From Trichodesmium erythraeum IMS101 (GTDB lineage Bacteria; Cyanobacteriota; Cyanobacteriia; Cyanobacteriales; Microcoleaceae): a stretch of 32,000 bases of DNA. Within the stretch, counting starts at the first letter, position 1. Each line of letters starts with the position of its first letter. The notes beneath the pieces were generated by a model that saw only the letters and a list, made by a program, of their open reading frames with translations, did not search any database and was not told the DNA's origin. The stretch lies in NCBI RefSeq assembly GCF_000014265.1, contig NC_008312.1, positions 6,060,001 to 6,092,000 on the forward strand. The letters are read 5' to 3'. The translations under genes were made by a program, and so were the position numbers. Of the stretch, positions 19,121 through 25,413 are shown piece after piece.

Positions 19121-20560
19121 ATGACCAAAAATATTATAAATACTATGACCATAGATGCTGATACCTTTTTTCAGGCAATAAACCCTAGGGTTCCTCTGTT
19201 TATAGATAATGCGGAAATTGACAAAAAATACTATATTGACTTTTCTCCGGTGCGTGGGCAACAGGTGATTAAGGATTTGAAGTCTACTATTACTCGTTGG
19301 TCTAAAGGTAAACCTACCTGTCAATTATTTACTGGACATATTGGTTGTGGTAAGTCTACAGAACTCTGGCGACTGAAGCAACAGTTGGAAACAGCAGGTT
19401 ATCATGTTGTTTATTTTGAGTCTGAAAAAAACCTGGAAATGGTAGATGTGGATGTTAGTGATATTCTTTTGACTATTGCCCAAAAGGTGAGTGAAAGTTT
19501 GGAGAAGTTAGAAAGATTAAATTTGGAAGAGCCAAAAAGGCTAAAAGGTCTACTTCAGAGTATTGTTAAATTATTACAGACAGAAATTGAATTTTCGGCA
19601 GAAACTACTGTTCCTGGTGTGGGTAAGTTGTCAGCTAGCAGTGATGGTTCATTTTCGGCAGATTTAGGAATAGTTGAAGTGAAGGCTGATGAGGAAGGGT
19701 TAGAGTTTGTGGCTTCAGGTATTGGTAAAATTTCTGCACAGGCAAAGGGTAGCCCGGAACTCCGCACTAAACTGAGGGAATATCTGGGACCTCGCACCCC
19801 TGGAATTATTGAGATGATCAACAAAGAGTTGCTTGAACCTGCTGATCAGAAGTTGAAAGAGTATGGTAAAAAGGGGTTGGTTGTGATCGCTGATAGTCTT
19901 GATAAGGTTGATAGTTCCCCAAAACCTTGGGGTAGAAATCAGCAGGAATATTTGTTTGTAGACCGAGGAGAGCAACTAACAAGCCTTCAGTGTCATCTGA
20001 TTTATACTTTACCTATAGCACTGCGTTTTTCTAATGACTACGGTACTTTAACTCAAAGGTTTGATGCTCCTAAGATATTGCCGATGGTAGCTACACAGTT
20101 ACAGGATGGCAGTGAATGTATTGCTGGAATGGAGTTAATGCGACAGTTGGTTTTGGCTAGGGCTTTTCCAGAGTTAACACCACAGGAAAGGTTGGCAAGG
20201 GTGACGGAAGTGTTTGATAGTCAGGAAACTTTAGACTATTTATGTTGGGTTAGTGGGGGTCATGTCAGGAATATGTTCCGAATGGTACTTGATGCTCTCA
20301 AGGAGGAGGATGACTTACCTATTTCTCGTGGGAGTGTTGACAATGTAGTGAGAAATTATCGCAATGAACAACTTTTGGCTATAGATGATCACGAGTGGGA
20401 GTTATTACGGCAGGTAGTTCAAACAAAAAAAGTAACGGGTGATGACGGATACCAAATTTTAATCCGGAGCATGTTTGTTTATGAGTATCAATATGACCAG
20501 AGTTCTTGGTTTAATATTAATCCTCTTTTGAAAGATGCACCAGAATTGAAGATAAGTTAA
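19121..20560 (+). CDS. Stand-alone P-loop NTPase, small gene of cassette 2 (paralog of 4632..5948)
   Basis: 479-aa ORF with Walker A FTGHIGCGKSTEL and Walker B GLVVIADSLDKVD. The true start may instead be the ATG at 19145, because MTIDADTFFQAINP aligns with MSVNVKAFFQATNP of copy 1. It carries a ~35-aa insertion relative to copy 1. Confidence 0.82.
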   Translation: MTKNIINTMTIDADTFFQAINPRVPLFIDNAEIDKKYYIDFSPVRGQQVIKDLKSTITRWSKGKPTCQLFTGHIGCGKSTELWRLKQQLETAGYHVVYFESEKNLEMVDVDVSDILLTIAQKVSESLEKLERLNLEEPKRLKGLLQSIVKLLQTEIEFSAETTVPGVGKLSASSDGSFSADLGIVEVKADEEGLEFVASGIGKISAQAKGSPELRTKLREYLGPRTPGIIEMINKELLEPADQKLKEYGKKGLVVIADSLDKVDSSPKPWGRNQQEYLFVDRGEQLTSLQCHLIYTLPIALRFSNDYGTLTQRFDAPKILPMVATQLQDGSECIAGMELMRQLVLARAFPELTPQERLARVTEVFDSQETLDYLCWVSGGHVRNMFRMVLDALKEEDDLPISRGSVDNVVRNYRNEQLLAIDDHEWELLRQVVQTKKVTGDDGYQILIRSMFVYEYQYDQSSWFNINPLLKDAPELKIS

Positions 20561-20613
20561 TAGATAGGGAGGTTGCATCAGGTATTATTAAGATAGTAGG
20601 AAGTTAAAAAATT

Positions 20614-23600: not shown

Positions 23601-25413
23601 AAGTTATGACAACACAATGAAGTTGTGGAACCATCAGGGAAATTTATTGCAGACTCTAAAAGGTCATGAGAATTGGGTAAATGGTATGGCTTTTAGTCCC
23701 GATGGAGGAACTGTAAAGTTGTGGAACCACCAGGGGAAATTATTGCAGACTCTAAAAGGTCATGAGAATTCGGTCTATGGTATAGCATTTAGTTTTGATG
23801 GAGAAACTATTGCAACTGCTGGTGCTGACAAAACAGTGAAGTTGTGGAACCCTCAGGGAAAATTATTGCAGACTATCACCGGCCATGATAACTGGGTCTA
23901 TGGTATAGCATTTAGTCCTGATGGAGAGACTATTGCTTCTGCTAGCTGGAAAACAGTGAAGTTGTGGAACCGTCAGGGGAAATTATTGCAGACTCTCACC
24001 GGCCATGAGAATTGGGTCTATGGTGTAGCATTTAGTCCTGATGGAAAGACTATTGCAACTGCTGGTGGTGACAAAACAGTGAAGTTGTGGAACCGTCAGG
24101 GGAAATTATTGCAGACTATCATCGGTCATGAGAATTGGGTCTATGGTGTAGCATTTAGTCCTGATGGAAAGACTATTGCAACTGCCAGTGGTGACAAAAC
24201 AGTGAAGTTGTGGAACCGTCAGGGGAAATTATTGCAGACTCTAAAGGATCATGATAATTGGGTATATGGTGTAGCATTTAGTCTTGATGGAAAGACTGTT
24301 GCAACTGCCAGTGGTGACAAAACAGTGAAGTTGTGGAACCGTCAGGGGAAATTATTGCAGACTCTAAAAGGTCATGATAACTGGGTCTATGGTGTAGCAT
24401 TTAGTCCCGATAAAGAGACTATTGCAACTGCCAGTGGTGACAAAACAGTGAAGTTGTGGAACCGTCAGGGGAAATTATTGCAGACTCTCACCGGCCATGA
24501 GAATTCGGTTTATGGTGTAGCGTTTAGTCCTGATGGAAAGACTATTGCAACTGCCAGTGGTGATCAAACAGTGAAGCTGTGGACAAATTGGCGGATAGAA
24601 GATTTAACTAAGCATGGTTGCGAGCGGTTAAATAATCATTTAGTTGCCCATCCCCAGAAGTTAGAGGAACTCAGAATTTGCCAAACTGACGAACGCAAGA
24701 AATTAGCTGCTAGTAGTTGGGTAATAGAGGGAGAAAAGTTGGCAAGGGAAGGGAAGGTTAAGGAGGCAGTTGCCACGTTTAAGAAAGCAGCAAAATGGAA
24801 TTCTGATATCAACATCAACTCAAATTTTCTAGTTTGGGCAAAATTATTAGCTGAGGCAGAAACACTGATGGAGGAAGGAACGGAATTAGCAAAAGAAGAA
24901 AAAATAGAGGCTGCAGTGGAAAAATACCAACGAGCAAAAGAACTTGATCAAGTGGCATTTACCCCTACTTGGCAAAATGTTGACCCAGAAGCTAAAGCTA
25001 AATATCAGGCAGTGGATGCTTTGTTGAATAAAGGGGATGAACTTCTGAGGAAGAGAAAGGTTAAAGAAGCGATCGCCTCCTACGAAAAAGCAGAAAGGAT
25101 CGACTCCACCCAAATTTCTGCTTTTAACTGGAATAAACTTTGTCGGGATGGTAGTCTTGATCAAAAAGCTGCTGATGTTATGTTTGCCTGTGAAAAAGCA
25201 GTTGCCATGAGCCCGCAAGATGGCAAAATTATTGATAGTCGCGGACTTGCTAGGGCATTAACAGGGAATATTGAGGGAGCGATCGCTGATTTTCAAGTCT
25301 ATGTAGAATGGACGAGAAATGAGGAGAAAAAAGCACAACGACAACAATGGATAAAAGCACTTCAGGCAGGGGAAAACCCATTTACTGATAAGCTGTTGGA
25401 AGAGTTAAGGTAG
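20614..25413 (+). CDS. STAND/NLR-like NTPase with TM helix, WD40 array and TPR-like tail; large gene of cassette 2
   Basis: 1599-aa ORF. The N-terminal module has no P-loop (FSPFLARYSY, DVLMVCGWE, PLPIVFWVD). It is followed by TPR-like helices (RVAHTYYYLGLWWQSYG). The NTPase has Walker A LIVLYGESGVGKSSTLQAGLIP and Walker B TVIIFDQFEEFFF. A hydrophobic helix WLVRGSVAVSLVMAILVGAIYMSV lies at 23239-23310. Nine WD40 units and C-terminal TPR-like repeats follow. An AGGAAG Shine-Dalgarno-like site sits ~10 nt upstream of the ATG. Confidence 0.9.
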   Translation: MSNSGNIEKLLRGLKMSKGRFSPFLARYSYVSQRDRLIENFRASFPGVLKVLALDESVTQIYTTVRKYLEGKELDVLMVCGWESLRNINELLVAMGYVREEFRKHCPLPIVFWVDGNVSRKFIRLIPDFYNWVSLTVFESANDELIDFIQQTSENVYQKVLESGVGIFLDYTDLGLPESSYQDLLEARQELANRGITLEAELEASLEFVLGRLTDDFEETARDHYQRSLELWQQLKNPLRVAHTYYYLGLWWQSYGVTHRTEKKIADKNAGDYFQQSVEGFEAIKRLDLVAKFINGWGEVLQVLESWEQLETVANRAIEVLDTSQPSFRLARAYDFLAECELAKGNYKQAKQLAETAIEIFNNTQSAASVLTSEKDQKTLDREKYYHRGRYLFSLAKAEKGSGKIKSAIDTLEKAKKRTKPEYNPDFYINIIEKLREIYYQEKEYLKAFKLKQERQRIEQLFGFIAFVGAKTLGSIKSNIHLALPYLKPNNNQQKITQEIAASGREFDVKILLERLSQPQHKLIVLYGESGVGKSSTLQAGLIPVLEKKSIDTRDVVVVLQRVYVNWICQLGKGLAKQLETTKNLAVNSEKLTSIEGIFAQLKKNEQLNLMTVIIFDQFEEFFFVNRELQDRREFAQFLQNCLEIPFVTIILSLRKDYIHYLLDFSRWANLEVINENILDKNILYYLGNLRPSQAKIVIEKLTANSQFKIDSALTEKLVENLAQELGEVRPIELQVVGAQLQEDQITTLAKYQELGNIPQVELVERSLKSVVKDCGEENEKFAWVVLWLLTDENNTRPLKTQAELVKESDFNPEKLELVLNIFVGSGLVFLLPEKPAARYQLVHDYLVWFIRQRKGNKIQEELKQEREKRQQLQTWLVRGSVAVSLVMAILVGAIYMSVREEHKEKIISQANESRALSISGQRWDGLMTAMNVRQKQIDAKIKPIGKASKITNALRVAVYSYDKDDEFREINRTQAHENWVNGIAFSPDEETIASGSYDNTMKLWNHQGNLLQTLKGHENWVNGMAFSPDGGTVKLWNHQGKLLQTLKGHENSVYGIAFSFDGETIATAGADKTVKLWNPQGKLLQTITGHDNWVYGIAFSPDGETIASASWKTVKLWNRQGKLLQTLTGHENWVYGVAFSPDGKTIATAGGDKTVKLWNRQGKLLQTIIGHENWVYGVAFSPDGKTIATASGDKTVKLWNRQGKLLQTLKDHDNWVYGVAFSLDGKTVATASGDKTVKLWNRQGKLLQTLKGHDNWVYGVAFSPDKETIATASGDKTVKLWNRQGKLLQTLTGHENSVYGVAFSPDGKTIATASGDQTVKLWTNWRIEDLTKHGCERLNNHLVAHPQKLEELRICQTDERKKLAASSWVIEGEKLAREGKVKEAVATFKKAAKWNSDININSNFLVWAKLLAEAETLMEEGTELAKEEKIEAAVEKYQRAKELDQVAFTPTWQNVDPEAKAKYQAVDALLNKGDELLRKRKVKEAIASYEKAERIDSTQISAFNWNKLCRDGSLDQKAADVMFACEKAVAMSPQDGKIIDSRGLARALTGNIEGAIADFQVYVEWTRNEEKKAQRQQWIKALQAGENPFTDKLLEELR
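23539..24582 (+). repeat. Coding tandem array of 9 WD40 units (123-bp period); two units carry in-frame deletions
   Basis: Unit starts are at 23539, 23662, 23758, 23881, 24001, 24124, 24247, 24370 and 24493. The spacings are 123, 96, 123, 120, 123, 123, 123 and 123 nt. The consensus is GHENWVYGVAFSPDGKTIATASGDKTVKLWNRQGKLLQTLx. Confidence 0.92.

Follow-up and report, generated by a model that had tools for sequence, protein, structure and literature searches.

In a 32,000-nucleotide stretch of the genome of Trichodesmium erythraeum IMS101 (assembly GCF_000014265.1, contig NC_008312.1, positions 6,060,001 to 6,092,000), hereafter the window, we analysed two adjacent genes on the plus strand, named here gene A (19121..20560) and gene B (20614..25413). 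Gene A is an open reading frame (ORF) of 479 amino acids (aa), and gene B, which starts 53 nucleotides (nt) after it, is a multidomain ORF of 1,599 aa. We found that A and B are two co-inherited genes forming a unit. An initial annotation, made from the sequence, had taken them for a two-component system in which a small ATPase partners a giant STAND-WD40 sensor, and both ORFs as well as all the motifs that it quoted were present. Judged from sequence comparison, the conserved partner of A is not the STAND-WD40 part of B but the N-terminal ~480 aa, which comprise a predicted dead AAA+ domain and TPRs; the ancestral unit would then be A plus this dead AAA+-TPR protein, and cyanobacteria would have extended the second gene by a complete nSTAND1 receptor. 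That the pair is a two-chain STAND-type molecular switch, fused to a receptor in cyanobacteria, is a proposition to which we give even weight for and against.

The homologs of A were abundant in cyanobacteria. More than 3,300 close relatives were present in the databases, the named ones all being cyanobacterial, mostly filamentous, and 59–82% identical to A; an exhaustive HMMER search with A returned 2,507 clusters (at 50% identity) at E ≤ 1e-3. When one genome per species was scanned, at least 585 loci encoded an A relative, and the synteny figures given here rest on 79 of these at least 585 species-level loci, together with five loci outside cyanobacteria. The initial annotation had proposed tabulating whether A homologs sit upstream of STAND-WD40-type genes, and a gene of B type, with the N-terminal domain, the TPR region and nSTAND1, was found directly downstream of A in about 50 of the 79 loci by tblastn and profile hidden Markov model (HMM) searches. 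In a neighbour-joining tree of A, the order A then B covered every clade except two and all the loci in the B-linked clades, and the loci without B formed one clade of Microcoleus and its relatives and a small second clade. Independent look-ups showed the same order in Anabaena azotica and Lyngbya aestuarii. In the reverse check, an A-like gene lay upstream of the B-type gene at 2 of 3 loci, the third of which looks degraded. The pairwise distances of A were correlated (44 pairs) with those of the B N-terminal domain (r = 0.84), the TPR region (r = 0.78) and nSTAND1 (r = 0.76), and A was the slowest-evolving part, with a mean distance of 0.37 against 0.45–0.60 for the parts of B.

Among the longer members of the A family, fusions to other modules were also found. 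Fusions with STAND proteins occurred as STAND + TPR + A-like (P0171 and P0200, the latter cluster including a Symploca protein) and as A-like + nSTAND1-like (P0162 and a protein of locus L055), whereas fusions of an A-like module with TIR (P0220, Nostoc) or in the arrangement CHAT + TRADD-like N + A-like (P0217) belong to a class of relatives that is rare. Fusions of the B N-terminal domain with A (P0167, P0225) exist as well; these are too few, may be gene-call artefacts and were not relied on. Thus, of the two-component claim, the unit itself stood, being carried by the synteny, the stop/start overlap of the second copy, the correlated distances and the fusions, and the STAND-WD40 part as the partner gave way to the dead AAA+-TPR part.

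This reassignment of the partner came from loci outside cyanobacteria, for which a distant A relative from a metagenome-assembled genome (MAG) of Dehalococcoidia was the query. Six contigs were read, two of them near-duplicates, leaving five distinct loci that included two Chloroflexi MAGs, with the taxonomy of the metagenomic contigs taken from the record names; the named relatives in this search were Anaerolineae, Ardenticatenaceae, Caldilinea, Acidobacteria and an "uncultured archaeon." In all five distinct loci, the A homolog was followed by a gene for a protein of 484–612 aa, the start of which overlapped or nearly abutted the end of A. An HMM built from cyanobacterial B N-terminal domains alone matched these partners with E = 1e-15 to 6e-18, and the remainder of each was TPR, made of almost identical 42-aa units in four of the five. 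Because the partners outside cyanobacteria consist of the dead AAA+ domain and TPRs alone, the ancestral unit is best reconstructed as A plus these two parts.

Several other features of these loci were recorded. The runs of near-identical 42-aa TPR units were seen in the free-standing partners of L087, L089, L090 and L092; the TPR region of cyanobacterial B is not visibly repetitive, and the homogenised array there is the WD40 array, so sensing may have passed from the TPR units to the WD40 units. On contigs with archaeal-looking gene content (L090/L091, 6001..9169), the pair is flanked by the genes of GlnK (P-II) and an ammonium transporter, and the order Amt-GlnK-A recurs on a third contig, named "uncultured archaeon" (L093). 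In a 12-Mb genome (L088, 5452..11989), genes for an HMG-CoA reductase and a GHMP kinase lie upstream of the pair, and a gene similar to MVD lies downstream and overlaps the end of the A and dead-AAA+/TPR pair.

The N-terminal domain of B (aa 1–165; 20614..21108, plus strand) had been described from its sequence as an alpha/beta module without a P-loop. This was confirmed, and the domain is now resolved as a degenerate AAA+ domain by its AlphaFold model, a Foldseek search and the conservation pattern. No Pfam family matched the first ~165 aa of B, and the AAA+ relationship was visible only through the fold search. The AlphaFold model, built with 23 homologs, had a predicted local distance difference test (pLDDT) score of 85 and a five-stranded alpha/beta core. 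When compared with the Protein Data Bank (PDB) by Foldseek, it matched AAA+ domains with a probability of 1.0 and template-modelling scores (TM-scores) of 0.45–0.54, and the matched proteins included RAD17, Sir3, ORC subunits, Hda, RuvB and Hsp104. The sequence reads FSPFLARYSY at the place of the P-loop and VLMVCGWES at the place of Walker B, followed by a conserved REEF motif. In the alignment of homologs, the P-loop position is F-x-L-I-L-A-R-C-N and the Walker B position is G-L-E-S, and further on a strongly conserved N-q-v-R-E-E-F-R-K is followed by A-P-D-F-x-S-W. The AAA+ fold, the altered P-loop and Walker B and the conserved motifs together point to a degenerate AAA+ module that has lost the P-loop and the acidic Walker B and keeps a conserved surface. 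The AAA+ domain of Sir3 and several ORC subunits are non-catalytic themselves. The domain is followed by the TPR region (aa ~166–480; 21109..22053, plus strand), in which Pfam TPR_12 was matched at aa 295–362 (E = 8e-13) along with weaker TPR families.

Gene A encodes what we interpret as an AAA+/STAND-type nucleotide-binding oligomerization domain (NOD). The Walker A motif FTGHIGCGKSTEL (aa 70–82; 19328..19366, plus strand) and the Walker B motif GLVVIADSLDKVD (aa 252–264; 19874..19912, plus strand) were located by translation and homolog alignment. Among 30 A homologs, Walker A (GHxGCGKST), Walker B (D258/D261) and a GGHVRN motif were invariant or nearly so, and a sensor-2-like arginine, tested along with the Walker motifs for an AAA+/STAND-type NOD in the same homologs, was conserved. 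A was above the threshold of no curated Pfam or NCBIfam family, the NCBIfam scan giving nothing relevant; the Pfam matches were sub-threshold (ATPase_2, AAA_16, nSTAND5 and NPHP3_N), the best being ATPase_2 with 22.9 bits against a cut-off of 33.2. A PDB sequence search with the A profile returned a single P-loop-level match, to mS29 (E = 0.53). The AlphaFold model of A (pLDDT 73) contained a nucleotide-binding domain (NBD), a helical lid, a C-terminal winged helix and a disordered Gly/Ser-rich insert. The fold searches, which had been suggested earlier for both A and the B N-terminus, gave RdrA, Cdc6/Orc1 and the archaeal ATPase PAB2304 as the best matches of the A model (E = 1e-4 to 1e-3). 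The model is thus consistent with a NOD of NBD-lid-winged-helix layout and Cdc6-like fold and, because these fold parts are all that A has and no sensor or effector domain was matched, we describe A as a bare NOD. The Gly/Ser-rich insertion, predicted to be disordered, lies between Walker A and B (aa ~157–197; 19589..19711, plus strand); it is absent from the second copy of A in the window (A′) and is variable among the homologs.

Some databases name the A homologs KAP P-loop NTPases, and this label was rejected. A had no match to PF07693, and A′ scored 15.8 bits with that family against a cut-off of 20. Furthermore, KAP proteins have transmembrane (TM) helices inserted in the P-loop domain, and the insertion of A is Gly/Ser-rich and not hydrophobic.

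The remainder of B carries the receptor part. The TPR-like region, the NTPase with active motifs, the hydrophobic helix, nine WD40 units and the TPR tail of the initial annotation were all matched by Pfam and Kyte–Doolittle analysis. The nSTAND1 NTPase module (aa 504–876; 22123..23241, plus strand) matched PF20703 (E = 7e-32), scoring 111.9 bits where the cut-off is 27.1. It has an intact Walker A, GESGVGKSS (aa 528–536), and Walker B, VIIFDQFEEFFF (aa 613–624), both at least 90% conserved in 44 B homologs, and is an active NTPase as far as motifs can predict. The predicted TM helix SVAVSLVMAILVGAIYMSV (aa 881–899; 23254..23310, plus strand; Kyte–Doolittle mean 2.25) follows straight after the NTPase, as it does in about 28 of 40 B homologs possessing a C-terminal region. 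Nine WD40 units (aa 977–1335; 23542..24618, plus strand) were matched by Pfam WD40 in nine stretches (E = 5e-109), and two of them are shortened in frame. Behind the propeller, a Cys-containing linker (HGC...RIC) leads to a C-terminal TPR tail (aa 1340–1599; 24631..25410, plus strand; Pfam TPR_2, TPR_1 and TPR_11), and the two-cysteine motif was also present in other B homologs whose C-terminal sequence was read. The region of B after the NTPase varies by genome. The commonest form has a TM helix and 7 to about 28 WD40 units; in A. azotica, a TM helix is followed by CHASE2 and further TM helices, one locus has a B that ends in a class III nucleotide cyclase, and forms of about 900 aa have nothing after the NTPase. 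The CHASE2 variants and the two cysteines behind the propeller suggest that, in proteins with the TM helix, the propeller lies outside the cytoplasm.

Two further loci departed from these forms. In Moorena (L083, 5315..8971), a Uma2-family endonuclease domain takes the place of nSTAND1 in a fusion with the N-terminal and TPR parts of B, and one Nostoc locus (L084, 7001..12969) holds an N-terminally truncated B that lacks an upstream A and precedes several fragments. Both loci look rearranged or decayed.

The WD40 arrays are tandem repeats at the DNA level. TRF reported a period of 123 bp with 7.1 copies and 89% matches in B, and 13.7 copies of a 123-bp repeat with 91% in the second copy of B (B′). 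The shortened units of B are 32 aa (23665..23760) and 40 aa (23884..24003) long, and one unit of 40 aa was seen in the B′ array (96..1782). These units, and the count of 9 against 14 units, look like the footprints of unequal recombination within the 123-bp repeats. Across the units, 17 of 41 positions are invariant, and the variation is greatest at positions 4, 6 and 22 (Shannon entropy 1.7–1.8 bits), which we take to be the top-face hotspot, that is, the putative binding positions of propellers. A repeat array that is homogenised yet varies at its contact positions is typical of diversifying sensors of the NLR type. The G+C content rose to 0.43–0.47 over the WD repeats, while much of the flanking sequence had about 0.32. 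The coding-strand GC skew was strong over 18001..25000 of the window (+0.22 to +0.31), and that of the minus-strand copy, over 1..5000, was about −0.12 to −0.26.

The second copy of the pair lies on the minus strand, the paralogous copies being 13 kb apart. A′ (4632..5948) encodes 438 aa, and B′ (1..4635), which continues beyond base 1 of the window, encodes more than 1,545 aa with 14 WD units. The initial annotation had reported this copy as having a stop/start overlap and as colinear domain by domain. The copy and the overlap were found, the ATG of B′ overlapping the TGA of A′ as ATGA, which predicts translational coupling of A′ and B′; in the 53-nt spacer between A and B, no terminator-like site was found. 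The domain order of B′ is that of B, with the TM helix absent and 14 WD units against 9. Outside the WD units, the copies were said to be ~75–80% identical; the actual protein identities are lower in most parts: the two A proteins share 67% of their residues, the nSTAND1 modules 75%, the TPR regions 66% and the N-terminal domains of B and B′ 53%. At about aa 850–900, B′ has lost a segment of roughly 30 aa with the TM helix that B and most homologs keep and, because of this loss, B and B′ may sit in different compartments.

A working model of the switch can be drawn from these parts. The WD40 (or TPR) array would bind a ligand; in proteins with the TM helix, the WD40 array probably lies on the periplasmic side of the membrane. 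The nSTAND1 module would then exchange nucleotide and oligomerise, and the oligomerisation would cluster the N-terminal dead-AAA+/TPR platforms. Each platform would dock A through a putative AAA+-to-AAA+ interface, in the manner of inactive ORC or RFC subunits, and the docked platform would nucleate an ATP-dependent assembly of A, which would act as the output or recruit an unlinked effector. The family resemblances of the parts suggest a role in conflict, surveillance or cell death, as is typical of multicellular bacteria, and an immune or conflict role is plausible. The fullest form of this proposal is that A and the dead AAA+-TPR protein make up an unrecognised, widespread split NLR-like switch, in which the ATPase and the repeat sensor would be on separate chains bridged by the degenerate AAA+ domain, across cyanobacteria, two Chloroflexi MAGs and archaeal-looking contigs, and which in multicellular cyanobacteria would be wired onto a TM nSTAND1 receptor with a hypervariable WD40 propeller in the periplasm. 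We put this forward tentatively and consider it rather unlikely.

A number of observations weigh against the two-chain switch model. Pfam, NCBIfam and PADLOC searches of A and B revealed no domain of the nuclease, protease, TIR, caspase or pore-forming kind, in agreement with the sequence-based reading, and no effector was found in A, in B or conserved in the neighbouring genes; nor was TIR, DrHyd, caspase, EAD or bDLD found fused N-terminally or adjoining in A, B and the flanking genes. The PADLOC matches were P-loop-level ones of 15–24 bits; A gave 15–17 bits to PDC-S20 and VakA, and the sole match of B was to the WD40-like stretch of HEAT-ARM_XIII. In hhalign comparisons of the B N-terminal domain with A and with nSTAND1, the probabilities were below 10% and not significant. 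The Foldseek TM-scores of A were low (about 0.25) and its model is of moderate quality, so that the support for A holds at the fold level only. The TM helix is missing from B′ and several B homologs and, because of this, the outside-sensing topology is not universal. The Microcoleus-type clade has A with no B nearby and an adjoining shikimate dehydrogenase gene. A is about 60% identical between Trichodesmium-like and Nostoc sequences, which is unusually conserved for a defence gene, and the neighbours at about 10 inspected loci were mostly housekeeping genes, the exception being two Nostoc loci beside caspase/bDLD3 and AP-ATPase genes.

Many of these points would sit well with a non-immune signal-transduction module, an ancient regulatory ATPase switch like MalT or AfsR that cyanobacteria coupled to receptors (WD40, CHASE2) or a cyclase for environmental or intercellular cues in filaments. 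We regard this as possible but not probable. The C-terminal variants of B, CHASE2 and the class III nucleotide cyclase, are classical signalling domains, and the housekeeping neighbourhoods, with one pair among mevalonate-pathway genes and others beside GlnK and Amt, the strong conservation of A and the lack of any effector or defence-model match in our searches agree with it. One nSTAND1+TM protein in the source data of PMC8195603 moreover bears the legacy name "High-affinity carbon uptake protein Hat/HatR"; no usable paper came up when the literature was searched for the Synechocystis WD-repeat protein "Hat" as a possible non-immune precedent. A signalling role fits less well with the homogenised WD40 and TPR arrays and the greatest variability of the WD40 units at the putative binding positions, with the paralogous copies lying so close to each other, and with the A-like modules fused to TIR and CHAT/TRADD-N; neither a DNA-binding output nor a kinase is present, and the nSTAND1 clade has been placed in predicted counter-invader systems (Kaur et al., PMC8195603).

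The slow evolution of A compared with every part of B could also be read in another way, with A as a chaperone-like regulator that remodels, licenses or resets B, setting a threshold as proposed for MoxR in the vWA/iSTAND ternary systems, and B alone as the receptor and effector, for instance through membrane perturbation by oligomerised TM helices. AAA+ proteins with inactive STANDs have been proposed as threshold switches (PMC7159879), and the TM helix lies directly after the NTPase in most B homologs. The layout of A is, however, Cdc6/STAND-like and not that of MoxR or a Clp-type unfoldase, the free-standing partners seen outside cyanobacteria lack both the TM helix and the STAND module that A would regulate, and B paralogs without the TM helix exist, B′ among them; we judge such a role improbable. 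Still far less credible is the view that the adjacency is an inherited gene order without functional coupling, or that the window copies are decaying. The orphan A clade, the degraded-looking loci with the truncated B lacking A (L084) and the Uma2 fusion (L083), the loss of the TM helix from B′ and the shortened units of both WD arrays would be in keeping with it. Against it, the pairing is kept across cyanobacterial orders, two Chloroflexi MAGs and three further non-cyanobacterial loci with unrelated flanks, and this cross-phylum synteny essentially excludes chance adjacency; stop/start overlaps occur also outside cyanobacteria, A and B co-diverge, the ORFs are long and intact (1,599 and more than 1,545 aa), and the active-site motifs are intact.

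If the split-switch proposal is right, it would describe an NLR that senses the outside, for example, in kin/non-self recognition or phage sensing at the envelope. Most bacterial NLR-like proteins described so far are single cytosolic chains with their own effector, and the pair departs from this pattern in three respects: two genes share the nucleotide switch, one contributing an active and the other a degenerate AAA+ module; neither carries an effector; and the TM helix would put the diversifying WD40 sensor outside the cytoplasm in most cyanobacterial members. Were the docking of A on the B N-terminus real, it would give a simple model for partner recruitment by inactive AAA+/STAND domains, and the conserved two-gene unit of hundreds of species could be used to annotate pairs listed as "ATP-binding protein" and "TPR protein." Even with a function in ordinary signalling, the pair would still mark a STAND-based membrane receptor family in filamentous cyanobacteria.

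The genes around the pair were inspected for a hidden effector or another partner. Directly upstream of A, a plus-strand gene (16048..18795) encodes a protein of 915 aa whose N-terminus resembles a signal peptide and which has two SLH domains and ends in a WD40 propeller. It looks like an exported WD40 protein anchored to the cell wall; as a hidden effector it was rejected because it does not travel with the pair in other genomes. Convergent with B, a minus-strand gene (25669..26754) encodes a 361-aa protein with two retropepsin-like aspartyl protease domains, and this candidate was dropped since it is not kept beside the pair elsewhere. A PD-(D/E)XK gene after B was present in A. azotica alone (two contigs, L001 and L002) and was likewise not accepted. 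For the orphan A clade, the shikimate dehydrogenase gene and a 143-aa ORF downstream were considered as alternative partners, and they look like plain local synteny. The weak PADLOC matches to mad8/PDC-S20 or generic TPR models, obtained with A, B, the relatives outside cyanobacteria and their partners, were not treated as membership. Between the two copies of the pair, a minus-strand gene (10522..11931) encodes a 469-aa protein with an NYN ribonuclease and OST-HTH/LOTUS domains. Farther downstream of B, there is an FG-GAP/Calx-beta gene of 1,009 aa (27348..30377, minus strand) and, just upstream of it, a non-coding 126-bp tandem repeat of three copies that are 94% identical (30463..30834). 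An Rfam scan of the window, this repeat included, gave no match.

When compared with known systems, the pair shares with Avs/bNACHT the tripartite logic of NTPase and repeat sensor, the large size and the repeat-based sensors. Avs is a single cytosolic chain with an N-terminal effector, whereas the N-terminus of B is a predicted dead AAA+ domain with TPRs, a second ATPase gene is present, and there is usually a TM helix that would place the sensor outside the cytoplasm. RdrA of RADAR was the top Foldseek match of the A model (E = 1.4e-4), albeit with a TM-score of 0.25; an RdrB deaminase gene is missing from the neighbourhood, and no RADAR call was made by PADLOC. The heteromeric AAA+ proteins ORC/Cdc6, RFC/RAD17 and Sir3 provide the best structural matches of A (Cdc6/Orc1) and of the B N-terminus (RAD17, Sir3 and ORC subunits). 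As the sequence identity is 8–17%, this likeness is at the fold level only, and neither a replication context nor evidence of DNA binding was seen for the pair.

Two other designs combine an ATPase with an inactive STAND. In ternary systems, AAA+ ATPases paired with inactive STAND modules were proposed as threshold-setting switches (PMC7159879), and the iSTAND/iSTAND2 MoxR-vWA systems (PMC7159879, PMC8195603) resemble the pair in having an AAA+ ATPase with an inactive STAND-like module and in being enriched in multicellular cyanobacteria. They differ in that the window has no MoxR or vWA gene, A is Cdc6/STAND-like, and EADs or effectors are absent. The nSTAND2 two-gene operon contains one active and one eroded STAND, for which a hetero-multimer was proposed (PMC8195603, Fig 6C). 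It is similarly made of two adjacent genes with P-loop-fold modules, one intact and one eroded, an analogy of design and not homology: A and B had no PF20702 match at E ≤ 0.1, and the inactive module here is joined to TPRs, and in cyanobacteria also to a second STAND that is active, in place of GT4 or HEPN effectors.

The closest relation is with the nSTAND1 systems. nSTAND1 was named as a STAND clade of predicted counter-invader systems (Kaur et al, 2021, eLife, PMC8195603), and "nSTAND1+TM+BetaPropeller," with 278 entries, is its commonest architecture in the source data of that study. B aa 504–1335 is a member of this family, with the Walker motifs, the TM helix, the WD40 array and an upstream partner gene alike. 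The source data also hold the string "<-TPR+nSTAND1+BetaPropeller<-AAA_22," uncommented, beside caspase/bDLD3 genes in two Nostoc genomes. Calling the system undescribed, as had been done at first, was therefore too broad, since the body of B is the commonest nSTAND1 architecture and the pair is already there as that string. In the searched text of PMC8195603, of Kaur et al (2020) and of a 2026 STAND survey, no description of A, of the B N-terminal domain or of their pairing was found. Thus, the receptor half of B is a described family, and within those searched texts A, the dead AAA+/TPR adaptor and the cross-phylum pairing appear undiscussed. In the source data of PMC8195603, a "TIR+DrHyd" gene, the domains of which were classed as effectors, often lies upstream of the nSTAND1+TM+beta-propeller genes in Bacteroidetes, Verrucomicrobia, Planctomycetes and Acidobacteria; other entries are fused N-terminal caspase and EACC2+caspase forms in cyanobacteria, a caspase form beside EACC1 in an actinobacterium and wHTH+TPR forms in Chloroflexi. 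In the pair described here, the upstream or N-terminal slot is filled not by TIR+DrHyd, caspase or EAD but by the predicted dead AAA+-TPR part on B and the bare AAA+ ATPase A. Lying directly upstream of the nSTAND1 gene, A therefore occupies the slot held elsewhere by TIR+DrHyd.

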